64,000 bases of DNA from Candidatus Binatia bacterium (GTDB lineage: Bacteria > Desulfobacterota > Binatia > UBA9968 > JAJDTQ01), in NCBI GenBank assembly GCA_022823055.1, contig JAJDXX010000035.1, positions 22,054 to 86,053 of the forward strand, written 5' to 3'. This document shows, piece after piece, positions 1,048-23,982 of this stretch (its first letter is position 1; every line of letters begins with the position of its first letter). A program made the translations under genes and the position numbers. The notes beneath the pieces are model-generated. The model was not told the origin of the DNA. It made no database searches and saw only the letters and a list, made by a program, of their open reading frames with translations.

Positions 1048-2085
1048 ATGGAAAACAGGACCATCTCGCCCACGGGCACGGAAGAGGACGTCGTCTACGA
1101 CTCGAGCCTGCGGCCGCGGCGCTTCAGCGAATACGTCGGTCAGGACAAGGTCAAGGCCAACCTCGCCGTCGCCATCACCGCCGCCAAGCGGCGCGGCGAC
1201 GTCCTCGACCACCTGCTGTTCCACGGCCCTCCCGGGCTCGGCAAGACCTCCCTGGCACACCTCATATCGCACGAGATGGGGGTGGACATCCGCCCCACCT
1301 CGGGTCCCGTGATCGAGCGCCCCGGCGACCTCGCCGCGCTCCTCACCAACCTGGACGCGGGCGACATCCTGTTCATCGACGAGATCCATCGCCTCAACCA
1401 CGTGGTGGAGGAGGTGCTCTACCCGGCCATGGAAGACTTCCAGGTGGACGTGATGATCGGTCAGGGGCCGGGCGCCAAGTCCATCAAGCTCGATCTCAAG
1501 CGCTTCACCCTCGTCGGCGCCACCACCCGTTCCGGCCTCTTGACCCCGGCGTTGCGCAACCGCTTCGGCGCGGTGTTCCGTCTCGACTTCTACGAGCCGG
1601 AGGTGCTGGCCCGGTTGCTCGCCCGCTCGGCGTCGCTGCTGGGCGTGGGCGGCGACGACGCCGGCTTCATGGAGATCGCGCGCCGCTCCCGCGGCACGCC
1701 GCGCATCGCCAACCGGCTGCTGCGCCGGGTGCGGGACTACGCGGAGGTCCACGGCGAGGGCAGGGTCACCCGGCCGGTGGCGTGCCGCGCGCTGGAGATG
1801 CTGGAGGTGGATGAGCAGGGGTGCGACAAGATGGACACGCTGATCCTCACCACCATCATCGACAAGTTCGACGGCGGTCCGGTGGGTCTGGATACCCTCG
1901 CCGCCGCCATCGGCGAGGAGCGCGGCACCGTCGAGGACGCCTACGAGCCCTACCTGATCCAGGCGGGTTTCCTGGAGCGGCGACCGCAGGGCCGGGTGGC
2001 TACGCCGGTGGCCTACCGGCACCTGGGACGGTCGCAGTCGGCATCCCGCGTGGACCGGGAGAAGCGGCAGAAGCGGCTGTTGTAA
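1048..2085 (+). CDS. ruvB: Holliday junction ATP-dependent DNA helicase RuvB
   Basis: [12 protein letters not shown]...[14 protein letters not shown] (Walker A) ...[10 protein letters not shown] (Walker B) ...[16 protein letters not shown]; start chosen at internal ATG 1048 (MENRTISP...) because the upstream ORF extension overlaps ruvA. Confidence 0.9.
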
Positions 2086-2178
2086 GCGCCGTGCGGCACG
2101 CTTGCGCGCACGACTCAACCCTTGCCAGGACCGTCGTTTTCCTTTGTGCTTTGAGGATGGAAGGGTTAGTTTGATGCG

Positions 2179-4455
2179 GTGCATTCGTATTCCGCGTCCG
2201 GGGGAGCCGGTATGGCCGCTCCAATAAGCACAGCCAAGACCGACGAAGAACACGCGCACGCGCTGCAATCCGCGGAACGCAGGCGCCGCCGGCGCGAAGG
2301 GTGGCTGATCCTTATCAGCTCCCTGTTGATCCTCCTGTTCGCGTTCTTCGAGGATATCCTTCCGGACGTTTCCGCGGACTACACCCTCGTCAGCAACATC
2401 GCGTTCTTCCTGCTGGTCAACCTCAACATCATCCTGCTGGCGCTGCTGGTGTTCCTGGTGGTGCGGAATCTCCTGAAGCTGGTGCTGGACAGGCGCCGGC
2501 GCATCCTGGGCTCCCGCCTCCAGGCCCGCCTGGTGTTCGCGTTCATCGGTCTCTCGCTGGTGCCCACCGTGCTGCTGTTCCTGACCGCCGGAAGCCTGGT
2601 GACCCGGTCGGTGGACAAGTGGTTCGATGCCCAGGTGGTCAACGCGCTCAGGGGCTCCCTCGACATCAGCTCCACCTACTACCAGAACTCGGCCGACAAC
2701 GCGCTTTTCTTCGCGCGCCAGCTAAGCCACCGCATCGGCGACGTGAAGCTCTTCGAGTCGAAGAACCTCGACGGTCTGAAGCGCGTGGTGGAGGAGAAGC
2801 AGCGGGAATACAACCTCGGCACGGTGGAGGTCTACAAGCCGGACGGGACGGCCCTGGTGAAGGCGTTCAACGACCAGGTGCCCACCGGAGTGACGGTGCG
2901 GCCACGGGCGGATTTTCTCGACAGCGCGTTGCGCGGCCTCGAGGTGACGCGCAGCGAGGGGCTGGGCGACGGCGACGTGCTGCGCGGCGCGGTGCCGGTC
3001 TACGGCGAGGGACGCCGGATCATCGGCGCGGTGGTGGTGGACTACTTCGTGCCCGCGAGCGTGAGCAAGAAGGCGCAGGCGATCTCGCGGTCGTACGAAG
3101 AGTACAAGCACATGGCCATCCTTAACAAGCCGGTGAAGAACGCGTACATGCTGACGCTGCTGCTTATCACGCTGGTCATGATCTTCGCGGCCTCGTGGTT
3201 CGGCTTTGCGCTGGCCAAGGGGGTCACGGTACCGATCCAGCAGTTGGCCGAGGGTACGCACGAAGTGGCACACGGCAACCTGGACTACCGTATTGAGAGC
3301 GGCGGCGACGACGAGATCGGCACGCTGGTGGCTTCGTTCAATCAGATGACCGAGGACCTCAAGCACAGCCAGTCCGAACTGGAGCAGCGCCGGCAGTACA
3401 TGGAGACGCTGCTCGCCAACATCACCGCCGGTGTGATCTCGGTGGACCGTTCCGGAAAGGTGACCATCGTCAACAAGGCCGCGGAGCTGATGCTGGATAT
3501 CGCGGCCGAGGCCGTGCTCCGCCGGCCTTACGAGGAGGCGCTTCAGGCCCCGAACCTGTGGCCGTTGCTCGACGTCATCCAACAGGTCAAGGGCAGTGCT
3601 GGCGTGGAACGCGACATACGCATCGTGGGCCGCGACGGACCCCTGACTCTCATGACCGTGGCCGCCAGCCTCCGGGATGACGACGGCAACACGCTCGGCA
3701 TCATGGTCTTCATCGAGAACCTCACCGAGATCCAGAGCGTGCAACGGGTGGAGGCGTGGCGCGAGGTGGCGCGCCGCATTGCCCACGAGATCAAGAACCC
3801 GCTGACGCCGATCCAGCTCTCGGCGCAACGCTTGCGCAAGCGCTACGAGAACGTGCTGGACGGTGACGGCGCCGTGCTCGACAAGTGCACGTCCACCATC
3901 ATCCGGCAGGTGGAAGAGCTCAAGACCCTGGTGAACGAGTTCTCGAACTTCGCGCGGCTGCCCACGGCGAAGCTTGCCACCGATGACTTGAACGACGTGG
4001 TGCGGGAAGCGTTGTTCCTTGTCAAGGAAGGTCACCGGGAGGTCGAGTTCGATTTCTCGGAGCAGGATTCCGTTCCGCTGGTGGAGCTGGACCGCGAGCA
4101 GATCAAGCGCGCGTTGTTCAACCTGCTGGACAACGCGGTGGCCTCCCTGAACGGCGGCGGACGTATCGAGATCGCCACGCGCTACGACGAAACCTTCGGC
4201 ATGGTGCGGCTGGAGGTGGCGGACGAGGGCGAGGGCATCGCCCGGGAGGACAGGGGGCGGATCTTCGAGCCGTACTATTCGACCAAGGAGGACGGCACCG
4301 GACTGGGGCTTTCCATCGTCGGCACCATCGTGGCCGACCACCGGGGATATATTCGCGTGCGTCAGAACCAGCCCCGCGGCACGCGCTTCATCATCGAGCT
4401 GCCCGCGGCCGCGCAGGCCGAGCCGCTCGACGTCCGCACGAGCGAGGCGTCCTGA
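2179..4455 (+). CDS. NtrY-like sensor histidine kinase (multi-TM N-terminus, HAMP, PAS, HisKA, HATPase_c)
   Basis: N-terminal hydrophobic helices, a periplasmic segment and a second TM helix; HAMP (VPIQQLAEGTHEVAHGNLDYRIE); PAS (YMETLLANITAGVISVD); H-box AHEIKNPLTPIQLSAQRL; N/G boxes (LLDNAV..., GTGLGLSIV). Architecture matches NtrY. Confidence 0.75.
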   Translation: MHSYSASGGAGMAAPISTAKTDEEHAHALQSAERRRRRREGWLILISSLLILLFAFFEDILPDVSADYTLVSNIAFFLLVNLNIILLALLVFLVVRNLLKLVLDRRRRILGSRLQARLVFAFIGLSLVPTVLLFLTAGSLVTRSVDKWFDAQVVNALRGSLDISSTYYQNSADNALFFARQLSHRIGDVKLFESKNLDGLKRVVEEKQREYNLGTVEVYKPDGTALVKAFNDQVPTGVTVRPRADFLDSALRGLEVTRSEGLGDGDVLRGAVPVYGEGRRIIGAVVVDYFVPASVSKKAQAISRSYEEYKHMAILNKPVKNAYMLTLLLITLVMIFAASWFGFALAKGVTVPIQQLAEGTHEVAHGNLDYRIESGGDDEIGTLVASFNQMTEDLKHSQSELEQRRQYMETLLANITAGVISVDRSGKVTIVNKAAELMLDIAAEAVLRRPYEEALQAPNLWPLLDVIQQVKGSAGVERDIRIVGRDGPLTLMTVAASLRDDDGNTLGIMVFIENLTEIQSVQRVEAWREVARRIAHEIKNPLTPIQLSAQRLRKRYENVLDGDGAVLDKCTSTIIRQVEELKTLVNEFSNFARLPTAKLATDDLNDVVREALFLVKEGHREVEFDFSEQDSVPLVELDREQIKRALFNLLDNAVASLNGGGRIEIATRYDETFGMVRLEVADEGEGIAREDRGRIFEPYYSTKEDGTGLGLSIVGTIVADHRGYIRVRQNQPRGTRFIIELPAAAQAEPLDVRTSEAS

Positions 4456-4496
4456 CGCGGGACCGCGGGAGGCGGGGAAACCGCGCGGCGTTTCAG

Positions 4497-5849
4497 GTGG
4501 AGGATTCAGAGACGATGCAGGCAGCGCAACGAACCGTGCTGGTGGTGGACGACGAGGACGTCATCCGCGATACCGTACGCGAGATCCTCGCCGACGAGGG
4601 GTATCGTGTGATCGCGGCGACCAAGGGGTCCGAGGTTCTGCGGCTTGTGACGCAGGAGGCGCCGGACGTGATCCTGCTGGACATCTGGATGCCCGAGATG
4701 GATGGCATCGTGCTGCTCAAGCAGATCAAGAGTGCGCATCCGGACGCCCGCGTCATCATGATCTCGGGCCACGGGAGCATCCACACGGCGGTCACCGCCA
4801 CCAAGCTGGGCGCGTTCGACTTCATCGAGAAGCCGCTCTCCCTCGACGGGCTGCTGGCGACCATCAAGCGCGCCTGCGGCGACGCGCGGCGCGAGAGTAC
4901 GGCGGCGGAGCAGCAGTTGCGGCTGCATCGGGCGCCGCCGCCGTGGTCCAGCGCCGGCTCCGCGGATGGCGCGGTGCGCCAAAAAACTCTCCGGAAGAGC
5001 GTCGTGGCCAACGGCCTGGGGCTGCATTCGGGGGTCAGCACCGGCGTCATCCTGCACCCGCTGCCGGAGAACAGCGGCATTCACTTCGGCGGCATCTCCG
5101 GCGACGCCACGGTCCCGGCCCATCTGGACTTCGTGCGCTCTACGGATTTCGCCACGTCGTTGCGGCGCGGCGGCGTGGTGGTGGGCACCGTGGAGCACTT
5201 GATGGCGTCTCTGCACGCCTACGGCATCACCAACCTGCTGATCAAGATGTACGGTGAGATTCCCATCATGGACGGCTCCGCCATCGAGTTCTGCCGCCTG
5301 ATCGAGGAGGCTGGGGTGGAAGAGCAGGAGGGGACGTGCCCGGAGATCGTCATCGATCGGACCCTGAGCGTGAGTGGAGACGGGCCGGACGAGATCGTCA
5401 TCGAACCGGCCGATGTCTTCACGGTGCACTACCGCCTGCGCTATCCGAGCCCCGTGGGCAGTCAGGAATACACCTACATCCACGGGGGGGCGGAGTCGTT
5501 TCGGGACGAGATCGCGCCGGCGCGTACCTTTGGCTTCCTGCGTGATTTCGAGAAGCTCGAACGGATGGGCTTGATCAAGGGCGGCCGCCTCGGCAACTGC
5601 ATCCTCATCGACGACGAGCGCGTGATCAACACCTCCCTGCGCTTCGAGGATGAGTTCGCGCGGCACAAGATACTGGACATCGTCGGCGACTTCTCGCTCA
5701 TGGGCCGCCCCATTCGCGGCCGGGTGCGCGCGCAGATGACGGGCCACGCGGACAATATCGCACTCTTGCGGCGCGTCGCGGAGATCTACGGTGTCCCCGG
5801 ACTCGAGACCAGCGCCGACATCCATGCCGCGGCGGAGCCGGCACGCTGA
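4497..5849 (+). CDS. lpxC: Response-regulator receiver domain fused to UDP-3-O-acyl-N-acetylglucosamine deacetylase (REC-LpxC fusion)
   Basis: Residues ~10-125 are a CheY-like receiver (VLVVDDEDVIRD...ILLDIWMPEMDG...IMISGHG...FIEKP). Residues ~165-450 align along their full length to LpxC: TLRKSVVANGLGLHSGV; VEHLMASLHAYGI (E78/H79 equivalents); RTFGFLRDFEKL; RFEDEFARHKILDIVGD (H238/D242/D246 equivalents); GHADN (H265 equivalent). It starts 41 bp after the NtrY-like kinase. Confidence 0.8.
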   Translation: MEDSETMQAAQRTVLVVDDEDVIRDTVREILADEGYRVIAATKGSEVLRLVTQEAPDVILLDIWMPEMDGIVLLKQIKSAHPDARVIMISGHGSIHTAVTATKLGAFDFIEKPLSLDGLLATIKRACGDARRESTAAEQQLRLHRAPPPWSSAGSADGAVRQKTLRKSVVANGLGLHSGVSTGVILHPLPENSGIHFGGISGDATVPAHLDFVRSTDFATSLRRGGVVVGTVEHLMASLHAYGITNLLIKMYGEIPIMDGSAIEFCRLIEEAGVEEQEGTCPEIVIDRTLSVSGDGPDEIVIEPADVFTVHYRLRYPSPVGSQEYTYIHGGAESFRDEIAPARTFGFLRDFEKLERMGLIKGGRLGNCILIDDERVINTSLRFEDEFARHKILDIVGDFSLMGRPIRGRVRAQMTGHADNIALLRRVAEIYGVPGLETSADIHAAAEPAR

Positions 5850-5889
5850 TAGCCGGCACGCTGATTCTTCCCGGAACAATCGGTCACGC

Positions 5890-5911
5890 GGACGGGCACT
5901 AGTGCCCGTCC
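5890..5911. terminator. Perfect 22-bp GC-rich palindrome GGACGGGCACTAGTGCCCGTCC between convergent genes; putative bidirectional terminator hairpin
   Basis: Seen directly; spans the stop codon of the minus-strand thioesterase and lies 41 bp after the REC-LpxC stop. Confidence 0.3.
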
Positions 5912-6303
5912 AGCCCGAGTAGCCGCGCGTAGGCTTCGGGCAGGGGCGTCAGCCTGCGTTCAGGACCGAGGCACGCGTGCTTCGTCCAGCCGGACGCCAG
6001 AGCGGTTCGGTCTCCCTCCAGGCCGATGCGGTAATGGAACCGCACCGCCACGGGGCTGAGAGATTCGAGGGTGGTCTCGATCCAGAGCAGGTTGTCGTAG
6101 CGGGCCGGTTTGCGGTAACGGCACTGCACTTCGGTCACCGGGAAGAAAATTCCCTCCCGTTCCGCCTGGTCGTAGGGAATGCCCGCCTGGCGCATGAACT
6201 CGGTCCTGCCGATCTCGAACCAGCGGAGATAGTTGGCGTAATAGGCGACGCCCATCTGGTCCGTGTCGCCGTAGATGACCCGGTAGGGGGTGATGTTCTT
6301 CAC
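5899..6303 (-). CDS. Acyl-CoA thioesterase, YbgC/4HBT (hotdog) family
   Basis: YRVIYGDTDQMGVAYYANYLRWFEIGRTEFMRQAG matches the YbgC family N-terminus including the catalytic Asp. Confidence 0.7.
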   Translation of the reverse strand: MKNITPYRVIYGDTDQMGVAYYANYLRWFEIGRTEFMRQAGIPYDQAEREGIFFPVTEVQCRYRKPARYDNLLWIETTLESLSPVAVRFHYRIGLEGDRTALASGWTKHACLGPERRLTPLPEAYARLLGLDGH

Positions 6304-6354
6304 GGGGCGCGTCGTCTTGGAAGGACGCCCTGTACGCCCGACGGGAGCCGCCGG

Positions 6355-7278
6355 TCAGGCGCCGGCCTGGCCCTCCGGCGGGTTGTTGCGGTTGCGGTCC
6401 CAGCGATCGATGCTGGGCACCTGAACGTCCATGGCGCCGTCGCCCCGGATCACGCGGAAGGTGATGACGTCGCCGGCCTGCTTCTTCCACACCTCCCGGT
6501 AGAGCTGGGGCCGGGTCTGCACCTCTTGCCGCTCCACGGTGAGGATGATGTCGCCCTGTTTGAGCCCCGCTTTCTCCGCGGGTCCCGACGGGGTCACGCC
6601 CGTGACCAGCACGTGGCCGCCCATGGCCTGTGAGTAGAGGCCCAGCCAGGGGCGCGCGGGGCGGCTCCGCACCCGTCCGAAGTTGCGCAGCTCGTCCGCG
6701 TCCCGGAGGTAGTACTCCACCGGGATGGCCATGGTGAACTTTCCGATATCGTTGAGGTTCAGCGACACGACTCCCAGCAGCCGCCCGCGGGTGTCCGCCA
6801 GGGTGCCGCCGCCGAAGCCCGGATTGAAGGCGCTCACGCGGATAGACTTCTCCAGCATGTACTCCCACTGGCCGTCGTAGCCTTCCAGCGAGGTCACGTT
6901 GCCGTCGCTGACGCGCCGGTTATGCTGTCCGCTGCTGGCGATCATGAAGGCAGGCTGCCCCACGGTCACGGTTTCCGCCGGGCGCAGGAACGGCAGGTCG
7001 TTGGCGTCGATCTTGACCAGGGCGATACCGGAGTCGAAGTCCTGGGCCATGAGCTGTCCGGGGTATTGCTTCTCGTCCGCGAGCGTCACGGTGATGGAGT
7101 CGGCCCCGTTGACGACGTAGTTGACCGTGAGGATGATGCCGGCCGGATCGACGACGGTTCCCGAGCCCATGCGCTCGGTGCCGAGGTTGCGGGCCGATGG
7201 ATGGTGCGCCGGCACCGTGGTGCTGAGGTCCGCCGTGGCCAGCAGGACGGCGTGCACCAGTCCGAGACGGGCGTTCAC
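6355..7278 (-). CDS. HtrA/DegP-like trypsin-fold protein with C-terminal PDZ domain; catalytic His and Ser substituted (predicted inactive pseudo-protease)
   Basis: Aligns to the DegP protease domain: GSGTVVD...TVNYVV (Tyr where DegP has TNNHVV His); DSGIALVKI (Asp retained); NPGFGGGTL (Gly where DegP has GNSGG Ser); PDZ region GVTPSGPAEKAGLKQGDIIL. Confidence 0.7.
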   Translation of the reverse strand: MNARLGLVHAVLLATADLSTTVPAHHPSARNLGTERMGSGTVVDPAGIILTVNYVVNGADSITVTLADEKQYPGQLMAQDFDSGIALVKIDANDLPFLRPAETVTVGQPAFMIASSGQHNRRVSDGNVTSLEGYDGQWEYMLEKSIRVSAFNPGFGGGTLADTRGRLLGVVSLNLNDIGKFTMAIPVEYYLRDADELRNFGRVRSRPARPWLGLYSQAMGGHVLVTGVTPSGPAEKAGLKQGDIILTVERQEVQTRPQLYREVWKKQAGDVITFRVIRGDGAMDVQVPSIDRWDRNRNNPPEGQAGA

Positions 7279-7473
7279 GCGGCGCCTCCGATGGTGTTGC
7301 GCTGGCGGATGCGGCTTCCAGGCCGAGCGTTCCTGGGATACGGGCAGAGTGTCACGGACTCATGCGTTAACAGAAACGATTCACGTACACAAGGCGCGCC
7401 CGTGGGGCGCGGGCTCCGGAGATTGACAGGCTTGACACCCGCCAGCTATGAAGATCGTTTGACTGGAGCGGCC

Positions 7474-7995
7474 TTGAAGATCCCCCTTAGCCGAATCGAT
7501 ACCATACCCAGGGAGACCCGCTTCGCCGAAACCGTCGACATCGTTCGGGAAGAAGCTTCGGTGGCGGTCCGCTTCCCGTCGCCGGTCCAGGTCGACGTCA
7601 CCTATTACAGGTCGGGACGGGAGATATTCTTCCACGGGAGACTCAAGGGGGAGGCGGAAGCCGAGTGCAGCCGCTGCCTGGAAGACTGCGGGTTCGTTGT
7701 CGAAAAATCCTTCGACTTCGTATTGACCCCGGACCCCCTTCCGACTAATAAGAACATGGAGCTTACGGCGGACGAAATGGGCTTGAGCTTCTACACCGGG
7801 GAGGACATCGACCTCTCGCCCTTCGTCCGCGAGCAGACGTTGCTCGCCCTGCCCCTCCGGCCCCTGTGCAGCGAGAATTGCCGCGGCCTTTGCCCCGACT
7901 GCGGCGCCGAGTTGAACCGGACCACGTGTGGGTGCACGTCGCCGGGGGATCCCCGCATGGCCGTTTTCCGCAACCTCCGATTGGACCGGTCCTAG
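7474..7995 (+). CDS. yceD: YceD/DUF177 family protein (large-subunit rRNA maturation-associated)
   Basis: C-terminal Cys cluster CPDCGAELNRTTCGC typical of DUF177; conserved position directly upstream of rpmF-plsX; TTG start assumed at 7474 (long upstream ORF extension is antisense shadow of the HtrA-like gene). Confidence 0.65.
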   Translation: MKIPLSRIDTIPRETRFAETVDIVREEASVAVRFPSPVQVDVTYYRSGREIFFHGRLKGEAEAECSRCLEDCGFVVEKSFDFVLTPDPLPTNKNMELTADEMGLSFYTGEDIDLSPFVREQTLLALPLRPLCSENCRGLCPDCGAELNRTTCGCTSPGDPRMAVFRNLRLDRS

Positions 7996-8036
7996 CGCCG
8001 GCAGGTCGGCAAACACAAACCAGGCAGGATGAAGAG

Positions 8037-8219
8037 ATGCCCGTACCCAAGAGAAGAACCTCCAACAGCAAGCGCAACAAGCGACGCGCTCATGACGCCA
8101 TCGCCGCCCCGCAGTGGATTACGTGCTCGCGTTGCGGCGCGGCGACTCTGAGGCACAGGGTCTGCGCCGCCTGCGGCTACTACAAGGCGCGGCCGGTCAC
8201 GACCGGCGAAGACACCTAG
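8037..8219 (+). CDS. rpmF: 50S ribosomal protein L32
   Basis: MPVPKRRTSNSKRNKRRAHDAIAAP... C-x2-C...C-x2-C; 60 aa. Confidence 0.85.
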   Translation: MPVPKRRTSNSKRNKRRAHDAIAAPQWITCSRCGAATLRHRVCAACGYYKARPVTTGEDT

Positions 8220-8249
8220 CGTGCCCTGGATTGCGCCTGTCCCCGGTGC

Positions 8250-9245
8250 GTGATGCGGCGGATCATCGTTGACGCGATGGGCGGTGACCACGGCCCGGGC
8301 GTCGTCGTGGCCGGAGCTCTGGAGGCCGCGGAGGAGTATGGGGTGGAGGTGACCCTGGTGAGCCAGGGGGACGCCGTGGAGTCCGAGCTGTCGAGCCGCA
8401 AGCACGACCCGTCGGCCGTACGCGTGCTGTCGGCGGCCACCTTCATCGGCATGCACGACTCGCCCAGCCGCGCCCTGAAACAGAAGGACTCCTCCATGAG
8501 GGCCGCCTTCGACCGGCTGAAGGCCGGGGAAGGGGACGCCGTGGTGAGCGCTGGGAACTCCGGGGCCATGTTGGCCATCGGCATGTTCGTGCTGGGGCGG
8601 TTGCCCGGCGTGGACCGGCCGGCGATCCTGGCGGTGAGCCCGTCGCTGTCCGGGGGCACCGTGCTGGTGGACGGGGGCGCCAATACCGACTGCAAGCCCC
8701 GGCAACTCGTGCAGTTCGCGCACATGGGAGCCATTTACGCGGAGAAGATCCTCGGCATCGCCCGCCCGCGGGTCGGTGTCCTGAGCAACGGCGAGGAGGA
8801 AAGCAAGGGCAATGACCTCACGCGCGAGGCGCTTGGCGAGTTGCGGGGTTCGGATTTGAACTTCGTGGGTTACGTAGAGGGCCGGGACATTACCAACGGC
8901 CGGGTGCAGGTGGTGGTCTGCGACGGCTTCACCGGCAACGTCGCGCTGAAGACCATGGAGGGCCTGGGACAGTTCGTTTCCACGGTGCTCAAGGAGGCGT
9001 TCCGCGGCAGCCTCTCGAGCCGGTTGGGTTACCTGTTGAGCCGGGGCGCCATAAGACGCGCCTACGACCGTCTCGATTACGCGCACTACGGCGGCGCGCC
9101 CCTGATCGGCTTGAACGGCATCGCCATCGTCGCGCATGGAGGCTCGTCCGCCAAGGCCATCAAGAACGCCGTGCGGGTCGCGGCCGAGGCCGCCTCGCAG
9201 GACATCAACAACGACATCGTGAGCGCGCTGGGTGGAGAACGGTGA
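8250..9245 (+). CDS. plsX: Phosphate acyltransferase PlsX
   Basis: MMRRIIVDAMGGDHGPGVVV...VDGGANTDCKP...CDGFTGNVALK; follows rpmF. Confidence 0.9.
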   Translation: MMRRIIVDAMGGDHGPGVVVAGALEAAEEYGVEVTLVSQGDAVESELSSRKHDPSAVRVLSAATFIGMHDSPSRALKQKDSSMRAAFDRLKAGEGDAVVSAGNSGAMLAIGMFVLGRLPGVDRPAILAVSPSLSGGTVLVDGGANTDCKPRQLVQFAHMGAIYAEKILGIARPRVGVLSNGEEESKGNDLTREALGELRGSDLNFVGYVEGRDITNGRVQVVVCDGFTGNVALKTMEGLGQFVSTVLKEAFRGSLSSRLGYLLSRGAIRRAYDRLDYAHYGGAPLIGLNGIAIVAHGGSSAKAIKNAVRVAAEAASQDINNDIVSALGGER

Positions 9246-10189
9246 CGGACCGGACACGGACCGCTTTCGTCTTTCCGGGACAGGGCTCCCAGTACGTGGG
9301 GATGGGTCAGTCCTTGTGCGACAAGTTTCCCGAGGCCAGGGCCGTCTTCGAGGAGGCGGAGGATGCCTTGGGTTTCGGGTTGCGGGAGCTCTGCTTTTGC
9401 GGCCCCGAGGCCGACCTCAACCGCACGGAAAACACTCAGCCGGCGATCCTCGCGGTGTCCGTGGCCGCGTTGCGGGCACTGGAGAGCCGGTGCGGCCTCA
9501 AGCCCGCCTGGGTGGCCGGCCACAGCCTCGGCGAGTACAGCGCCCTGGTGTGTACGGGGGCGCTCGGGCTGGCGGACGCGGCGCGGGTGGTGCGGGAGCG
9601 GGGCCGTCTGATGCAGCAGGCCGTGCCCGAGGGCGAGGGCGGCATGGCGGCCATTCTCGGGCTGGAGGCCGCCGCCGTGCACGGGATCTGCGCCGAGGCG
9701 GCGGACGGCGAGGTGGTGGCCCCGGCCAACCTGAACGGCGGCGGACAGGTGGTGGTGTCCGGCGCACGAGCCGCGGTGCGGCGGGCCGCGCAGCTTGCGC
9801 GCGACCGGGGCGCGCGCAAGGTGGTGGAGCTGGCCGTGAGCGCGCCGTTCCACTGCGCGCTGATGAAGCCCGCGGCCGAGGGATTGCGGGAGGTGCTGGA
9901 GGCCGTGGAGGTGCGTCCCTTGTCGGTGGGAGTCGTCACCAACGTCGAGGCGGCGGTGAACGCGGACCCGGCGCGCGTAAAGCCTCTGCTGGTGGAGCAG
10001 GTGATGGCGCCGGTTCGCTGGGACGAGTCGGTGCGCGCGCTGGTGGATCTCGGCTGCGAGCGCGCCGTGGAGCTGGGTCCCGGCAGGGTCCTCTCGGGAC
10101 TCATCCGGCGCATCGACCGGAGCGTGCGCAACCTTCACGTGGAAGCGCCCGAGAACGTGGACAAGCTTCCGACGGAGCTGGGGGCCTGA
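9242..10189 (+). CDS. fabD: Malonyl-CoA:ACP transacylase FabD
   Basis: GTG start overlapping plsX stop (GTGA); AFVFPGQGSQYVGMG...GHSLGEYSALV... Confidence 0.9.
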   Translation: MTDRTRTAFVFPGQGSQYVGMGQSLCDKFPEARAVFEEAEDALGFGLRELCFCGPEADLNRTENTQPAILAVSVAALRALESRCGLKPAWVAGHSLGEYSALVCTGALGLADAARVVRERGRLMQQAVPEGEGGMAAILGLEAAAVHGICAEAADGEVVAPANLNGGGQVVVSGARAAVRRAAQLARDRGARKVVELAVSAPFHCALMKPAAEGLREVLEAVEVRPLSVGVVTNVEAAVNADPARVKPLLVEQVMAPVRWDESVRALVDLGCERAVELGPGRVLSGLIRRIDRSVRNLHVEAPENVDKLPTELGA

Positions 10190-17091: not shown

Positions 17092-17544
17092 ATGGCAGGC
17101 ATTCGCCGCAAGGCCAGGGAGCTGGCATTGCAGGTGCTCTACCAGATGGAGATCACCTGCGAACCGGCTCCCAGCGGTCCGGAAAGCTTCTGGGGGCACT
17201 TCCCGTCGCGCCCCGCGGCGCGGGATTTCGCCCAGCGCATGATCGCCGGCGTCACCGCGCACCGTGACGAGATCGACGGGCTCATCGAGAACGCCGTCGC
17301 GCACTGGAAGCTTGAGCGCATGTCGAAGGTGGACCTGATCATCCTGCGGCTCGCCAGCTACGAGCTGCTCTTCTGTCCGGACATCCCGCTGAACGTCAGC
17401 ATCGACGAAGCCATCGAGATCGGCAACCGCTACGGGTCGGACGACTCCCCCGCCTTCATCAACGGAGTGCTTGACCAGGTAGCCCATGCCAACGGGCTCA
17501 AGGAGACCGAGAGGACCAAGGAGAGCGAGCGGCCGGAACCATGA
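17092..17544 (+). CDS. nusB: Transcription antitermination factor NusB
   Basis: [17 protein letters not shown]...[12 protein letters not shown]...[25 protein letters not shown]. Confidence 0.85.
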
Positions 17545-20030
17545 TCGAGAAGTACGAGTTCTGGAAGATCGAAGAGAAGTGGCAGAGCGAGTGGGAGCGC
17601 GAGGAGAGCTTCGTGGTGGGCGAGGACTCGCCCCGCCCCAAGTACTACCTGCTGGAGATGTTCCCCTACCCGTCGGGGCGCATCCACATGGGGCACGTGC
17701 GCAACTACTCCATCGGCGACGTCATCGCGCGCTACAAGCGCATGCGCGGCTTCAACGTCCTTCATCCCATGGGCTGGGACGCCTTCGGCCTGCCCGCCGA
17801 GAACGCGGCCATCGCCAACAAGGTGCATCCGGCGCGCTGGACCGTGGAGAACATCGACTACATGCGCTCCCAGCTCAAGAAGATGGGCTTCAGCTACGAC
17901 TGGTGCCGGGAACTGGCCACGTGCGACGCCGACTACTACCGCTGGGAACAGTTGTTCTTCCTGGAGATGCTCAAGCGCGGACTCGCCTACAAGCGCAGCT
18001 CGGCGGTCAACTGGTGCACCGGGTGCGAGACCGTCCTGGCCAACGAGCAGGTAGTGGACGGCGTCTGCTGGCGCTGCGAGCAGGACGTGGTCATGCGCGA
18101 GCTGCCGCAGTGGTTCTTCCGCATCACGGACTACGCCGACGAGCTGCTGGCGGCGTGCGACGATCTCGCGGGCGGGTGGCCCGACAAGGTGCTCACCATG
18201 CAGCGCAATTGGATCGGCAAGTCCATCGGCGCCGAGATCCGCTTTCCGCTGGTGGACCGGGAGGGCGACCTGACGGTCTTCACCACCCGCCAGGACACGA
18301 TCTACGGCGCGACCTTCGTCTCGCTTGCGGCGGAGCATCCGCTGGCCCTGGAGCTCGCGCAGGGCACGCCGCAGCAACAGGCGGTCCGGGAGTTCGCCGG
18401 ACATGTGAAGCGCATGAGTCATTCACGGCGCGACGACGCGGACATGGAGAAGGAGGGCATCTTCACCGGGTCGTACTGCGTCAACCCGTTCACCGAGGAA
18501 AAGGTTCCCATCTACGTGGCCAACTTCGTGCTGATGGAGTACGGCACCGGAGCGGTCATGGCGGTCCCGGCCCACGACCGGCGGGACTTCGAGTTTGCCC
18601 GGAAATACGATCTCCCGGTGCGCCCGGTCATCCATCCGGCCGGCGTCACCCTGGCGGCCGAGGACATGACCGAGGCCTTCGTCGCCGACGGGGTGATGGC
18701 CGACAGCGGCCCCTTCAGCGGGCTGGGCAGCGCCGAGGGCCGCGCGCGCATCGCCGCCTACCTGGAGGAGAGGGGGTGGGGCAAGGGCACCGTGCGCTAC
18801 CGGCTGCGGGACTGGGGCATCTCGCGCCAGCGCTACTGGGGCGCGCCCATCCCCGTGGTGTATTGTGAGGCCTGCGGCATGGTGCCGGTGCCGGAGGACG
18901 AGTTGCCGGTGCGGCTCCCCACCAACGTGGAGTTCACCGGCGCCGGCGGCTCGCCGCTGGCCAACCTCCCGGAGTTCCACGAGACCGCCTGCCCCACGTG
19001 CAAGAGGATGGCCCGCCGCGAGACCGATACCATGGACACGTTCGTGGAGTCTTCATGGTACTTCGCGCGCTACGCCTGCCCCGACGAAGACCGGCAGCCG
19101 CTGGACCGGGAGCGGGCCAACTACTGGATGGCCGTGGACCAGTACGTGGGCGGCGTCGAGCACGCGGTGCTGCATCTGCTCTACGCGCGCTTCTTCACCC
19201 GCGTCCTGCGGGACATGGGCTGGCTTGCCGTGGACGAGCCCTTCAGCAACCTGCTGACCCAGGGCATGGTCATCAAGGACGGCGCCAAGATGTCCAAGTC
19301 CAAGAACAACGTGGTGGACCCGGATCAGTTGATCCAGCGCTACGGCGCGGACACCGCGCGCCTGTTCACGCTGTTCGCGGCCCCGCCCGAAAAGGATCTG
19401 GACTGGAGCGACCAAGGCGTCGAGGGCGCGCACCGCTTCCTCAACCGGGTATGGCGCTTCGCCATGCGCCACGGCGAGCGGCTCGCGGGCGTCGCGGCCG
19501 ATGCCGGCGCCGAGCCCGCGTCCGACGGTCTCAAGGAGCTGCGCCGGCGCGTCCACTGGACCATCAAGAAGGTCACCGACGACGTGGAGCGCTTCCACTT
19601 CAACACCGCCATCGCCGCCGTCATGGAGCTTCACAACGCCGTGAACGCGTTGAGCGCCGAGGAGCTCGAACAGGACGGCAACGCGGCGCTGGTGAAGGCG
19701 GTGCTGGAGACCGAGGTGGTGCTCCTGGCGCCGTTTGTGCCGCACGTGGCGAGCGAGCTGTGGCAGCGCCTGGGACACGTTGAATCCCTGGCGGACGTGG
19801 CCTGGCCCGAGCACTCCGAGGACGCTCTCGTGCAAGAGACCCGGCTCATCGTCGTCCAGGTGAACGGCAAGCTGCGCGGCAAGATCTCGGTGCCGGCCGA
19901 CGCCGCCAGGGAGGATGTCGAGTCGGCCGCGCTGGCGGACCCCAAGGTGGCGGGTTTCCTGGACGGCCGCCCCGTCAAGCGGGTCATCCAGGTGTCCGGA
20001 CGCCTGGTCAATATCGTGATCGGGGGTTGA
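17541..20030 (+). CDS. leuS: Leucyl-tRNA synthetase
   Basis: [22 protein letters not shown] (HIGH) ... KMSKSKNN (KMSKS); 829 aa; ATGA overlap with nusB stop. Confidence 0.95.
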
Positions 20031-20034
20031 GAGC

Positions 20035-20634
20035 TTGCACGGCCGGCGCGCCTTGCGGTTGGCGTTCGCGCTGGCGGCGGCGCTCCTGGCGGGCGCCTGC
20101 GGCTACCGGTTCGTGGGTCCCGGTGCGGGATTGCCGGACGATGTCCGAACCGTCTACCTCGAGCGTTTCCTCAATCAGACCCGCGTCACCGGCCTGGAAC
20201 ACGGGGTGGGGCTGGCGTTGCGACGGGAACTCGCCGGCGCGGAGCGGCCGCGGGTGGTGGACCGGTTCGAGGACGCGGACGCGGTCCTTTCGGGAGTGAT
20301 TCGCCACTATGGCAGCCGAAACCTGTCGGTGGACAGAGCGGACCGGGTGCTGCAGTCGGAAGCCCGGCTCGACGCGGAGGTCACGCTGCGGCGGCGGTCG
20401 TCGCGGGAAGTCTTGTGGCCGCGGCAGGTGGTGCGGTTGCGGGAAGTTTACGAGGGCGCCCGCGGGGCCGTGGTCCCCGGTTCCGGCGAATTTCTGCGCG
20501 ACGCCATCGATACCGGCGACGTCGGCCGTCTGAGCGACGCCGCGATTGCGGAGAGTTCTCGAATGGCCGCGAGGGAACGGTTGCTGCTGCGGCTGGCTCG
20601 TGTCATCCGGCAGCGGATGGCGGAGGGGTTCTGA
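20035..20634 (+). CDS. lptE: LPS-assembly lipoprotein LptE
   Basis: TTG start 5 nt after leuS stop; lipobox LLAGAC followed by GYRF (compare E. coli ITAGCGWHLR); conserved leuS-lptE synteny. Confidence 0.6.
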   Translation: MHGRRALRLAFALAAALLAGACGYRFVGPGAGLPDDVRTVYLERFLNQTRVTGLEHGVGLALRRELAGAERPRVVDRFEDADAVLSGVIRHYGSRNLSVDRADRVLQSEARLDAEVTLRRRSSREVLWPRQVVRLREVYEGARGAVVPGSGEFLRDAIDTGDVGRLSDAAIAESSRMAARERLLLRLARVIRQRMAEGF

Positions 20635-20654
20635 GGGGCGCCCTGGGCGGCCGT

Positions 20655-20924
20655 CTACGAGGAAGCGGCCTGATGCGCCGCCCGCGCCAACCGCGCCATC
20701 TTGCGCGAGGCCGTGTTGCGCTTGAGCACGCCCTTGAGTACGGCCTTGTCGAGCAGCCCGTTCACTTCCTTGATCTTCTCCGCGATGGCATCGCGGTCCT
20801 TGCTCTCGATCGCCACCCGGGTCTTCTTGACCAGGGTCCTGACCCGGGAGCGGAACGCCTGGTTGCGCAGTTGGCGTTGCACGCTTTGCTTGTGCCGTTT
20901 GATGGCCGACTTGTGGTTCGCCAA
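20655..20924 (-). CDS. rpsT: 30S ribosomal protein S20
   Basis: LANHKSAIKRHKQSVQR...; TTG start preceded by AGGAGG; longer upstream ORF extension rejected. Confidence 0.8.
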   Translation of the reverse strand: MANHKSAIKRHKQSVQRQLRNQAFRSRVRTLVKKTRVAIESKDRDAIAEKIKEVNGLLDKAVLKGVLKRNTASRKMARLARAAHQAASS

Positions 20925-20959
20925 GATGTACCTCCTAGAGGCTGTTTCTGTAGCACCGC

Positions 20960-22639
20960 ATGAGTGAAGAGTCAACGGCGAGGGAGCTTGGCCGGGTCGC
21001 GAAGGCCACGGGTATCGTGGGCTCCATGACCCTGTTGAGCCGCTTCACGGGCCTTGCCAGGGATGTCGTCATCGGGTACCTGCTCGGGGCGCGGAGTGCC
21101 GCCGACGCGTTTTTCGTTGCTTTCCGGATCCCCAACCTGTTGCGGCGCTTGACCGCCGAGGGCGCCCTGTCCGCCGGCTTCGTGCCGGTCCTGTCCCAGG
21201 TCCTCGCCACCCGGGGGCGCCGGGAAGCGATCGAGGCGAGCCGCGTGATCATGACCTTCGCGGTGCTTTTCCTCCTGGTGGTGACCGCCGCCGGCGTGCT
21301 CTTCCCGGCACCGTTGACCTGGCTGTTCGCGCCGGGTTTCTCCGCCGCGCCCGAGAAGTTCTCCCTCACGGTCCGGCTGGTCCGCATCATGTTCCCCAGC
21401 ATCTTCTTCATGAGTCTCGTGGCGCTGTGCATGGGGTACCTGAACACGTTCCGCCACTTCATGGCGCCGTCGCTGGCGCCGGTGTTGCAGAACCTGTCCA
21501 TCATCGCGGCGGCCTTTCTGCTGATCCCGCTGCTGTCACAACCGGTCATGAGCCTGGCCTACGGCGTCCTGCTGGGCGGCGCCGCGCAGCTCGCACTGCA
21601 GCTCCCCTTCCTGCGGCGGCACGGCTTCTCCTGGCTCCCCAACCCGAACTTCCGCAGCCCCGCGCTCTACAGGTTTCTGCGGCTCATGGGTCCGGCGGTC
21701 ATCGGCGCCGCCGTCTACCAGTTGAACGTGCTGGTGAGCACCATCCTGGCCTCGTTGCTGGAGCCTGGAAGCGTCTCCTACCTCTACTATGCCGACCGTC
21801 TGTTGCAGTTCCCCTTGGGGGTGTTCGCCGTGGCCCTGGGCACGGCCGCGCTGCCGAGCTTCTCCTCGCTGGCCGCGCGTCAGGACATCGACGGATTGCG
21901 GACGACACTCGGCTACTCGCTACGGATGGTGAACTTCATCTCGTTGCCGTCCGCCCTGGGGCTGATGGTCGTCGCCGTGCCGGCGTTCTCACTGCTGTTC
22001 CAACGGGGTGCGTTCGACGCGGCCGACGTCGCCGCCTGCGCTCATGCGTTGGTCTTCCTGGCCCTGGGCTTGTGGGGCGTCTCCGCCGCGCGCGTCCTCG
22101 TTCCCGTGTTCCACGCCATGCAGGACACGAGAACGCCGATGCGGGTGGCGTTCCTGACCTTCGTGTTGAACTTCCTTCTGAGCCTGGCGCTGATGGGACC
22201 GGTCGGAACGGCGGGGGCGGGCAACGCTTTCGTCACGGTGGTGGCGGCCCTCGGCGGGGGCATCGGGCTGCTGAGCCTCTCTTACGCCGGGCTCGCGTTG
22301 GCCAACTCGCTGTCGGCGACCTTCCAGTTCGCGGCGCTCTTGTGGCTGATGACGCGACGGCTCGGAGGATTCGCCTGGAGTGACTACGGGTCGTCGCTTT
22401 GGCGCAATCTCGCCGCCGCCGCCGTCATGGCCGGTCCGCTGGCTCTGGTGGCGGCACGTGTGCAGTGGGGATCCGCGACGCTGTTCGCGCAGGTTCCGAT
22501 TTTCGGCGCTCTGCTTGCGGGCGGAGTCGTGCTGTACGCTACGGCCGCGAAGCTTTTGCGCAGTCCGGACTGGCCGCTCGCCCGGAAGATGGGAATCTCT
22601 CTGATCGAGAGACTCCCCATCTTCCACGAGAAGAAGTGA
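20960..22639 (+). CDS. murJ: Lipid II flippase MurJ (MviN)
   Basis: TLLSRFTGLARDVVIGYLLGARSAADAFFVAFRIPNLLRRLTAEGALSAGFVPVL; ~14 TM helices; divergent from rpsT as in many bacteria. Confidence 0.85.
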   Translation: MSEESTARELGRVAKATGIVGSMTLLSRFTGLARDVVIGYLLGARSAADAFFVAFRIPNLLRRLTAEGALSAGFVPVLSQVLATRGRREAIEASRVIMTFAVLFLLVVTAAGVLFPAPLTWLFAPGFSAAPEKFSLTVRLVRIMFPSIFFMSLVALCMGYLNTFRHFMAPSLAPVLQNLSIIAAAFLLIPLLSQPVMSLAYGVLLGGAAQLALQLPFLRRHGFSWLPNPNFRSPALYRFLRLMGPAVIGAAVYQLNVLVSTILASLLEPGSVSYLYYADRLLQFPLGVFAVALGTAALPSFSSLAARQDIDGLRTTLGYSLRMVNFISLPSALGLMVVAVPAFSLLFQRGAFDAADVAACAHALVFLALGLWGVSAARVLVPVFHAMQDTRTPMRVAFLTFVLNFLLSLALMGPVGTAGAGNAFVTVVAALGGGIGLLSLSYAGLALANSLSATFQFAALLWLMTRRLGGFAWSDYGSSLWRNLAAAAVMAGPLALVAARVQWGSATLFAQVPIFGALLAGGVVLYATAAKLLRSPDWPLARKMGISLIERLPIFHEKK

Positions 22640-23235: not shown

Positions 23236-23982
23236 TTGGAACGCCCGTATATGACCGACGATCCGATCCTGCCCAAGTTCGTCCACCAGATGGAGCGGAT
23301 ACGCTCGTGCCTGGCATGGTCGCTGGCCGCGGTGTTCGTTCCGTTCGTCCTGGGCTTTCTGCTGGCGCCGCAACTCTTCGAAGTCCTGGTAGAGCCCCTC
23401 AAGAGCCGGCTTGAACCCGGGCAGAGCCTCATCGGCACGGGCGTGGCGGAGGTCTTCTTCGTCGAGATCAAGGTGGCGTTTCTCGCCGGAGTGCTCGCCG
23501 GGAGCCCGGTCATCTTCCTCCAGTCGTGGCGCATGGTGGCGCCGGCGTTTGGCGCCGAGGGAAAGACCCGATACATGGTGGGTTTCGTCAGCGCCACCAC
23601 CATGTTCTTCCTTTCCGGCGCGCTTTTCTGCTACCGGACCGTCCTGCCGGTGGCGTTTCTGTATTTCCTGGACCAGTACGGGTCCCTGCAGGTCGAACCG
23701 GAGATCCGCGTCTCCGAGTATTTCTCGTTCTTCTTCCGCATCGTCGTCGCCTTCGGCGTGACCTTCCAACTGCCGGTGTTCTCGTTCTTCCTGGCGCGTG
23801 CGGGCATCTGGGACCACCGCTTCCTGTGGCACCATTTCCGCTACGCCGTTCTGGTGATGTTCGTGCTCGCGGCGGTGCTGACCCCCCCGGACGTGGTCTC
23901 TCAGGTGCTCCTGGCGGGCCCCCTCATCGGCCTCTATCTCGCGAGCATCGGCGTGGCGTATCTCTTCGGGCGCAAGCCGTAA
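23236..23982 (+). CDS. tatC: Sec-independent protein translocase TatC
   Basis: LGFLLAPQLFEVLVEPL...; six predicted TM helices; family-typical length. Confidence 0.85.
   Translation: MERPYMTDDPILPKFVHQMERIRSCLAWSLAAVFVPFVLGFLLAPQLFEVLVEPLKSRLEPGQSLIGTGVAEVFFVEIKVAFLAGVLAGSPVIFLQSWRMVAPAFGAEGKTRYMVGFVSATTMFFLSGALFCYRTVLPVAFLYFLDQYGSLQVEPEIRVSEYFSFFFRIVVAFGVTFQLPVFSFFLARAGIWDHRFLWHHFRYAVLVMFVLAAVLTPPDVVSQVLLAGPLIGLYLASIGVAYLFGRKP

Follow-up and report, generated by a model that had tools for sequence, protein, structure and literature searches.

LpxC controls entry into lipid A synthesis and is a major target for antibiotics. What is understood of its regulation comes mainly from enterobacteria, in which FtsH/LapB proteolysis governs the enzyme, and elsewhere the regulation is acknowledged to be unknown or different; in the organisms studied, control is mainly proteolytic, with a mode that differs by lineage (PMC12444477). 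The closest described links between a sensor kinase pathway and lpxC come from Desulfovibrio and from the NtrYX family. In Desulfovibrio vulgaris, the sigma-54 regulator DVU2934 has a single binding site, which lies upstream of lpxC; its orthologues were noted in Geobacter and Acidobacterium, and lpxC adjoins the orthologous operon in Syntrophobacter fumaroxidans (PMC3333781). In Desulfovibrio alaskensis G20, lpxC has a sigma-54 promoter, and disruption of the kinase Dde_3000 raises expression of lpxC only (PMC4045070). Deletion of ntrYX in Rhodobacter sphaeroides increased lpxC mRNA 8.8-fold and raised lipopolysaccharide (LPS), with no NtrX site at lpxC (PMC7240162). NtrYX affects lpxC mRNA and LPS in both Rhodobacter and Caulobacter (PMC7240162, PMC12444477), and a 2025 review treats this as a non-specific transcriptional influence (PMC12444477). 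According to a 2026 study, NtrYX-family systems have a third, periplasmic component, the DUF4390 protein PlrP, which acts on the periplasmic domain of the kinase; the same study reported loss of the AAA+ domain from the NtrX proteins of beta-proteobacteria (PMC13001219). The physiological role of the NtrYX-like family has long been unclear. Here, we compare with these systems a two-component pair encoded in a 64-kb stretch of DNA (the window) from a Candidatus Binatia bacterium, in which an NtrY-type sensor histidine kinase is followed by a response regulator whose receiver domain (REC) is fused to LpxC.

The kinase and fusion open reading frames (ORFs) lie on the same (plus) strand, between ruvB, which ends 93 nucleotides (nt) before the kinase start, and a convergent thioesterase gene. 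The kinase gene (2179..4455) encodes 758 amino acids (aa), and the regulator gene (4515..5849) encodes 444 aa when read from ATG 4515. An earlier note on this DNA had described an NtrY-type kinase paired with a receiver-LpxC regulator, and this description was borne out by domain searches, residue alignment, fold prediction, an independent assembly, and phylogenetic recurrence. Its figures of a 41-bp gap and 450 aa need revision: they agree with an ORF listing that begins at GTG 4497 (4497..5849), but the true start is most likely ATG 4515, because a Shine-Dalgarno sequence (GGAGGA, 4499..4504) lies 10 nt upstream and the database gene calls have 444 aa. The spacer to the kinase stop would then be 59 nt (4456..4514). 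A protein identical to the fusion (P0001) is present in the databases. A scan of positions 1900..6400 for terminators and promoters, sigma-70 promoters included, returned no sites, and no sigma-54-like promoter was found at the operon, the best match reaching 5-6 of 11 positions. Because no terminator-like or promoter-like site lies between them, the kinase and fusion genes are probably co-transcribed. Residues of the fusion protein are numbered below from the GTG 4497 start (450-aa numbering) unless the 444-aa numbering is stated; P-numbers and L-numbers denote the comparison proteins and loci of this analysis.

A Pfam search, which had been set beforehand as a check, found both Response_reg and LpxC in the fusion protein. 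The receiver (residues 14-123; 4536..4865, plus strand) scored 111.5 bits, and its best NCBIfam and PDB matches were to NtrX. Alignment with CheY placed the acid pocket at D18/D19 (CheY D12/D13; 4548..4553), the phospho-acceptor at D62 (D57; 4680..4682) within LLDIWMP, the Ser at S90 (CheY T87; 4764..4766) within MISGHG, and the Lys at K112 (K109; 4830..4832) within EKP. All of these are read on the plus strand, and together they bear out the complete receiver that had been recognized from the same motifs; F109 is the aromatic switch residue. The switch residues D18, D19, D62, S90, F109, and K112 were kept in 119 of 119 close homologues, and the acceptor Asp was kept in 51 of 54 divergent representatives. 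In an AlphaFold2 (AF2) model of the fusion built on 35 homologues, residues 7-120 form five alternating strand-helix units, (beta-alpha)5, with a predicted local distance difference test (pLDDT) score of ∼90. The conserved adjacency of the kinase gene, described below, suggests that the receiver would take its phosphoryl group from this kinase.

The receiver is joined to LpxC by a linker (residues 124-161; 4866..4979, plus strand) of ∼35 to 38 aa; the earlier note had recognized the linker but put it at ∼40 aa. The linker is rich in Pro, Ala, and Ser and is disordered in the AF2 model (pLDDT 22-43 over residues 124-150, 444-aa numbering). Between R119 and Q156, not one column was invariant among the 35 homologues, and across the family the linker varies from 21 to 64 aa with no conservation of sequence.

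The LpxC domain (residues 162-428; 4980..5780, plus strand) matched Pfam PF03331 with 274.7 bits over profile positions 1-267 of 268, and it scored 243.8 against a cutoff of 187.25 with the NCBIfam lpxC equivalog TIGR00325. We aligned it with an E. coli LpxC reference sequence, and the alignment was cross-checked by HMMER against P. aeruginosa LpxC from the PDB. In this alignment, E233/H234 (5193..5198) correspond to E. coli E78/H79, T344/F345 (5526..5531) to T191/F192, H390/K391/D394/D398 (5664..5690) to H238/K239/D242/D246, and H417 (5745..5747) to H265; H177 belongs to the same plus-strand set. In E. coli LpxC, H79, H238, and D242 are the zinc ligands, E78 is the general base, and H265 forms a pair with D246. 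The claim that the LpxC catalytic motifs are kept held for the full set, with one correction. The HAYG motif is not a zinc-ligand motif, since its H240 aligns with E. coli A85, and the true Glu/His pair lies in TVEHLMASL. The catalytic set was present in 45 of 45 fused representatives and the T191 equivalent in 44 of 45. The AF2 model shows the two-lobed LpxC fold, with low confidence at residues 338-376 (444-aa numbering), and a Foldseek comparison of this half with solved LpxC chains gave template modeling (TM) scores of 0.73-0.84 (target normalised) with E values of ∼1e-25. After the LpxC domain comes a C-terminal tail of ∼20 aa that is unconserved and disordered. The LpxC half is predicted to be catalytically competent, with deacetylase activity on UDP-3-O-(R-3-hydroxyacyl)-GlcNAc. 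Five positions set the fused proteins apart (G183, Y242, K250, C266, and L370): within the fused clade each is conserved to at least 85%, stand-alone LpxCs share them to at most 25%, and K250, in place of the usual Glu/Asp, is a charge reversal. These positions are candidate contact points for the receiver.

The fusion is not confined to this organism. Both Pfam domains were present in all 120 best homologues, at 61-100% identity. A HMMER search covered 1.84 billion cluster representatives, and the best 150 of these (50%-identity representatives) included 47 REC-LpxC proteins (the short form; about half of them fragments), 15 REC-AAA+(-HTH)-LpxC proteins (the long form, in which HTH denotes a helix-turn-helix domain), 2 REC-HTH-LpxC proteins, and several N-terminally truncated versions; the fused architecture occurred in at least 64. 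When the long form served as the query of a second search, at least 115 of the top 120 clusters had it. Short-form metagenome-assembled genomes (MAGs) carried the labels Binatia, Deltaproteobacteria, Syntrophobacterales, Acidiferrales, Thermodesulfobacteriota, and Syntrophorhabdus, while the named sources of the long form were Tectomicrobia/Entotheonellaceae, Nitrospinae, Thermodesulfobacteriota, and Desulfobacterota MAGs. The database search that the earlier note had proposed was thereby answered, the architecture being common to hundreds of protein clusters from Binatia, "Deltaproteobacteria," Nitrospinota, Tectomicrobia, and Thermodesulfobacteriota. Annotation hides it: in IMG, many long forms are labeled "response regulator NtrX" and others simply "LpxC," so that each protein is named for one of its parts. 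In addition, an independent Logan assembly (L089) of run SRR16351697 was 100% identical over window positions 3795..7062. These results indicate that the receiver-LpxC fusion is genuine, of long standing, and widespread among several uncultured phyla.

The kinase contains all five domains of an NtrY-type kinase by Pfam: NtrY_N, HAMP (345-395), PAS (407-513), HisKA (527-594), and HATPase_c (638-744). The NtrY_N match is partial, covering profile positions 30-157 of 291 with 28.2 bits against a cutoff of 23.2. By hydropathy, hydrophobic segments span residues ∼39-143 and the last transmembrane segment spans residues 318-352, leaving a periplasmic region of ∼175 residues (∼144-317) with weak Cache/PDC-like matches. 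The phospho-acceptor His536 (3784..3786) lies within the H-box AHEIKNPLTPIQLSAQRLRK, and both the AHEIKNPLTPI H-box and the NtrY_N-HAMP-PAS-HisKA-HATPase layout are present. Aligned over 713 aa, the window kinase shares 42% identity (E=1e-178) with the kinase of L083, which has a strong NtrY_N match and belongs to a DUF4390-ntrY operon. The upstream DUF4390/PlrP partner of the beta/gamma-proteobacterial subtype (PMC13001219) is absent here: tblastn found no DUF4390 gene anywhere in the 64-kb window (no match at E<=1).

Adjacency of the kinase is conserved across more than 60 fused and unfused loci. An orthologous kinase lies directly 5' of the short fusion in 11 short-form loci (L001-L008, L013, L016, and L081), usually within a ruvC-ruvA-ruvB-kinase-fusion block. 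In the long-form loci sampled, an NtrY_N-type kinase is directly upstream in 3 of 7, and DUF4390 precedes the kinase in two of the long-form loci (L083 and L086); DUF4390 was seen in 28 related loci.

An unfused version of the system was found among loci retrieved by a genome scan for the receiver alone or LpxC alone (L017-L080; for example, L018 5989..10610, L033, and L049). In 23 loci, a stand-alone lpxC, usually a DUF4390 gene, an orthologous NtrY-type kinase, and a REC-AAA+-HTH_8 regulator are encoded on the same strand. These loci come from Acidobacteriota, Desulfobacterales, Geobacteraceae, Desulfuromonas, Syntrophales, Smithellaceae, Desulfosarcinaceae, and others; two of their DUF4390 genes were tested and scored 159 and 124 bits with Pfam. 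A sigma-54 promoter, called as TGGCAC-N5-TTGCT with at least 9 of 11 positions matching no more than 200 nt upstream of lpxC, was present in 15 of the 23 loci versus 1.4% of control windows, mostly 49-64 nt before the lpxC start codon. No fused locus examined had a stand-alone lpxC upstream of the kinase.

The regulators of the two versions differ in their AAA+ modules. The GAFTGA-type loop was found in 43 of 59 aligned unfused regulators (∼47 of 62 by motif search) versus 0 of 21 fused ones, and the Walker B Asp-Glu, scored column-wise on the alignment, was found in 53 of 59 versus 0 of 20. The Sigma54_activat Pfam score was 237 bits in the unfused L018 regulator and 31-141 bits in fused proteins. 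The earlier note had called NtrX a sigma-54 activator. This is correct for the unfused orthologues found here, which are genuine GAFTGA activators, but it is wrong for alphaproteobacterial NtrX, which to our knowledge lacks GAFTGA. The window protein has no AAA+ domain and falls outside the sigma-54 enhancer-binding proteins; it also falls outside the NtrX equivalog (NF051870, REC-AAA+-HTH_8), scoring 127.8 against a cutoff of 600 through its receiver only.

The fused relatives span a series of domain arrangements, each confirmed by Pfam: REC-AAA+-HTH-LpxC, REC-AAA+-LpxC, REC-HTH-LpxC, and REC-LpxC. P0123 carries REC, Sigma54_activat, AAA_lid_14, HTH_8, and LpxC; the HTH is absent from P0129 and L015; and P0133 and P0137 consist of REC, HTH_8, and LpxC. 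Among 35 homologues at 62-93% identity, invariant columns numbered 44 in the receiver, 102 in LpxC, and 0 in the linker. Pairwise identities of the receiver and LpxC halves were correlated (Mantel r=0.79, a value reached by 0 of 2,000 permutations). These data indicate that the two halves are under equal purifying selection, as a unit. Neighbor-joining (NJ) trees united the LpxC domains of every fused architecture in one clade, apart from the stand-alone LpxCs, that of E. coli included. Because REC-LpxC forms nest several times by AAA+/HTH-bearing forms (P0140 with P0123, P0137 with P0141, P0133 with P0126, and the window protein and P0121 by P0128/P0149), the trees imply that the middle modules were lost repeatedly. 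The deepest NJ branches, however, are also REC-LpxC, so that the polarity of AAA+/HTH loss is tentative. Three LpxC-only proteins of ∼285 aa (P0194, P0221, and P0166), with a Met right at the LpxC domain, also fall inside the fused clade; they represent either secondary receiver loss or mis-called starts on short contigs.

What can explain an LpxC attached to a receiver? The architecture, residue conservation, predicted folds, synteny, domain series, sigma-54 promoters, and AAA+ decay observed here lead us to infer phosphotransfer, an effect on LpxC, and an order of evolutionary events. Our preferred explanation, to which we assign a probability of roughly 60%, is that the pair is a working two-component system with an enzyme as its output, derived from a circuit dedicated to lpxC transcription and now exerting direct phospho-control of LpxC. 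The kinase, with its periplasmic sensor domain and cytoplasmic PAS domain, would autophosphorylate on His536, and Asp62 of the receiver would accept the phosphoryl group. This modification would then modulate the LpxC domain tethered via the flexible linker of ∼35 residues. In CheB, the unphosphorylated receiver occludes the active site. Given that LpxC is active as a monomer and that the linker is predicted to be disordered and flexible, the most likely mode here is a similar one, with the receiver docking on the catalytic domain or letting go of it.

On the simplest account, the evolutionary part of this explanation would have run in four steps. First, an NtrY-type kinase would have come together with a sigma-54 enhancer-binding regulator in a circuit dedicated to lpxC transcription. 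LpxC would then have joined the C terminus of the regulator in one old lineage, by rearrangement, since lpxC sits upstream of the kinase in unfused loci. Once the enzyme was on the receiver, sigma-54 activation would have become dispensable, and the AAA+ domain would have lost GAFTGA and the Walker B glutamate. Finally, the AAA+ and HTH domains would have been deleted repeatedly, in several lineages, ending in the REC-linker-LpxC arrangement of the window. The origin from an lpxC-dedicated circuit appears well supported by these comparisons, and the best reading is that control moved at least once from transcription to the protein itself. The idea of a phospho-switchable LpxC, which the earlier note had raised, is strengthened because the same kinase/regulator pair adjoins a sigma-54-driven stand-alone lpxC in unfused lineages and because experiments link such pairs to lpxC in Desulfovibrio (PMC3333781, PMC4045070) and in alphaproteobacteria (PMC7240162).

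Several observations weigh against this explanation. The acceptor Asp is substituted in P0140 (by Asn), P0146 (by Ser), and P0195 (by Glu), and fused genes stand as orphans, with no adjacent kinase, at L011, L015, L082, L084, L085, and L087. In the NJ tree, the kinase-linked stand-alone LpxCs are not the sister group of the fused LpxC clade, and lpxC lies upstream of the kinase in unfused loci versus at the regulator C terminus in fused ones. Because the gene orders differ and the clades are not sisters, the origin of the fusion would have needed a rearrangement and would be old. Recent capture of a neighboring lpxC, which predicts that the fused LpxCs are sister to the kinase-linked stand-alone LpxCs, was unsupported (39% versus 40% mean identity). 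As for the substituted receivers, P0146 also lacks the acid pocket and the Lys and may be a phosphorylation-independent pseudo-receiver variant, and the Glu of P0195 could act as a phosphomimic. One of the orphan regions, L011 4316..8223, belongs to the low-G+C chromosome of "Deltaproteobacteria bin116," and its REC-LpxC gene lies between a sigma-70-family gene plus hsp20 and murI.

The main alternative to CheB-like docking is stability control, in which the receiver would set the amount of LpxC rather than its catalysis, by exposing or hiding a degron or by membrane localisation, as a built-in analogue of FtsH/LapB (or alphaproteobacterial Lon) control. Receiver domains that serve as proteolysis adaptors are known (RssB), and RssB is among the NCBIfam matches of the fusion. 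Moreover, proteolysis is the main form of LpxC regulation in the species examined so far (PMC12444477), and the disordered, unconserved tail and the disordered linker could be protease entry sites. Neither the linker nor the tail contains a conserved degron motif, however, and no dedicated protease partner lies in the neighborhood apart from a convergent HtrA-like protease of periplasmic type. We consider control of LpxC amount unlikely on balance.

A second alternative is that the fusion is an accessory LpxC paralogue, a conditional second deacetylase or one with another acyl-sugar substrate, with the housekeeping role filled by a canonical, stand-alone lpxC at another site in the genome. The separation of the fused LpxC clade from all stand-alone LpxCs and its five clade-specific substitutions (G183, Y242, K250, C266, and L370) are in keeping with such a role. 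Against it, the domain scores above the lpxC equivalog cutoff, and the catalytic and substrate-contact residues checked are invariant. LpxC is normally single-copy, and tblastn detected neither a second lpxC nor a further receiver within the 64-kb window. In addition, fused lineages have no lpxC at the site beside the kinase where unfused lineages carry one. An accessory paralogue therefore seems improbable to us.

Other regulators are known in which an enzyme has been recruited as the sensor domain, and LpxC could in principle be the input here, binding a lipid A precursor or product and reporting pathway status, with the short forms serving as a phosphate sink or kinase modulator. Three long forms (P0123, P0307, and P0385) retain the HTH_8 DNA-binding domain, through which control of transcription would still be possible. 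The window protein and most short forms, however, have no DNA-binding or other output domain, and the zinc ligands and general acid/base residues are kept in 45 of 45 proteins, which favors catalysis over binding and makes a sensory role very improbable.

Last, the joining of two neighboring genes by a frameshift or a sequencing or assembly error, a danger raised in the earlier note, found no support beyond the fact that at 67% G+C all three frames are open across the linker, which makes ORF continuity alone weak evidence of fusion, and, as far as the sequence data reach, it is refuted by the identical sequence from an independent assembly of the raw run SRR16351697 and by the presence of the fusion in 120 of 120 top homologues and in no fewer than 64 of the top 150 representatives, with linker lengths that vary in-frame.

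If the pair works by direct phospho-control, the fusion is a "Rosetta stone" that physically links a sensor kinase pathway to LpxC, and it suggests an undescribed direct phosphorylation control of outer membrane synthesis. Together with the sigma-54/lpxC operons, it points to a dedicated two-component system for LpxC that is widespread over several phyla. Tentatively, this could be a previously unrecognized, protease-independent mode of LPS homeostasis and, by extension, control of LpxC could be an ancestral core function of the NtrYX-like family, an idea that we advance with less than even confidence. It also offers a hypothesis for the LPS and envelope defects of alphaproteobacterial NtrYX mutants. 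The domain series would provide a natural example of a transcription factor turned into an enzyme switch through stepwise domain decay, and, with one kinase and one fused enzyme, the pair would allow a simple in vitro study of the way in which envelope signals determine LPS flux.

The surrounding genes bear on the envelope of the organism. A block of leuS, lptE, rpsT (minus strand), and murJ occupies window positions 17541..22639, with TatC at 23236..23982. Because LptE, the LPS-assembly lipoprotein, is encoded at 20035..20634 (plus strand; Pfam LptE, 40.2 bits against a cutoff of 23) in its conserved leuS-lptE position, the organism is predicted to have an LPS outer membrane, and the block confirms by gene content a diderm LPS-type envelope in an organism that makes LPS. 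Downstream of the fusion, on the minus strand, are the convergent 4HBT thioesterase gene (5899..6303) and a gene for a trypsin-PDZ HtrA-like protease (6355..7278), beyond which lie yceD, rpmF, plsX, fabD, fabG, and acpP (window 5899..9245 and beyond). The position next to this fatty-acid/phospholipid cluster is kept in L002-L004, L016, and L081 (L081 11375..16936), and it may be functionally meaningful, since LpxC and FabZ contest the same acyl-ACP pool. In the long-form loci L082, L083, L084, and L086, the REC-AAA+-LpxC gene is followed by lolA, for the outer-membrane lipoprotein carrier, and rseP, for the site-2 protease in envelope stress signaling; L083 also has a LapA-domain gene ∼6 kb upstream. 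The theme of this neighborhood is the envelope. In L085 (a Thermodesulfobacteriota assembly), the REC-AAA+-LpxC gene is directly followed by a gene (6750..9692) for a 980-aa PDZ-GAF-Sigma54_activat-HTH_8 protein; a PDZ domain on a sigma-54 activator is unusual.

How does the window pair compare with the systems already described? The earlier note knew of no characterisation of this architecture, and our full-text literature searches, which covered few subscription-journal papers, likewise found no published description of a receiver-LpxC or NtrX-LpxC fusion. In the 2025 review of lipid A regulation, the words "receiver," "fusion," and "fused" never occur (PMC12444477). The Desulfovibrio proteins DVU2931/Dde_3000 and DVU2934/Dde_3003 are likewise a kinase/regulator pair tied to lpxC, with lpxC as the sole mapped target (PMC3333781, PMC4045070), and the lineages with orthologues of that circuit are of the same kinds as those with the lpxC-(DUF4390)-kinase-regulator clusters found here. 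The likeness of the window system to DVU2934 is drawn from the published description. The two differ in that the Desulfovibrio circuit acts on transcription, through an intact AAA+/GAFTGA activator and a separate lpxC, whereas in the window system and its fused relatives the enzyme is covalently joined to the receiver, with activator modules that have degenerated or are missing. The unfused clusters extend the Desulfovibrio lpxC circuit and place DUF4390/PlrP-type partners outside the proteobacteria surveyed in the 2026 study (PMC13001219).

The window pair resembles NtrY/NtrX (PlrS/PlrR) in its kinase layout, H-box, and NtrX-like receiver, and its relatives share the DUF4390/PlrP gene before the kinase. 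NtrX, however, is a DNA-binding protein with a broad regulon and an indirect effect on lpxC, whereas the window protein has neither AAA+ nor HTH and the window has no DUF4390. Enterobacterial FtsH/LapB (YciM) is also a post-translational control of LpxC, one that balances LPS against phospholipid synthesis (PMC12444477); the earlier note had taken it as the normal mode, which is true for enterobacteria but not universal (PMC12444477). That system uses a C-terminal degron with a separate protease and adaptor, whereas the window protein has no conserved tail and carries a phospho-receiver in the same polypeptide.

The only LpxC fusion known to us is LpxC-FabZ (NCBIfam PRK13188). In these proteins, FabZ is fused C-terminally, the fusion is metabolic rather than regulatory, and the LpxC domain lies outside the fused-receiver clade; examples occurred among the stand-alone clade matches (P0227, P0231, P0247, and P0258). 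In plan, the window protein resembles response regulators with enzymatic outputs, namely CheB, the GGDEF proteins PleD/WspR, the HD-GYP protein RpfG, and the PP2C types, with which it shares an N-terminal receiver, a flexible linker, and a C-terminal catalytic domain. The catalytic domains of those regulators bear no sequence relationship to the window LpxC, and their output is a signaling or adaptation enzyme, whereas in the window it is a core biosynthetic enzyme that catalyzes the committed step of an essential envelope pathway. Receiver-enzyme regulators are already known, and LpxC adds to them a new and unusually important enzyme as an output.

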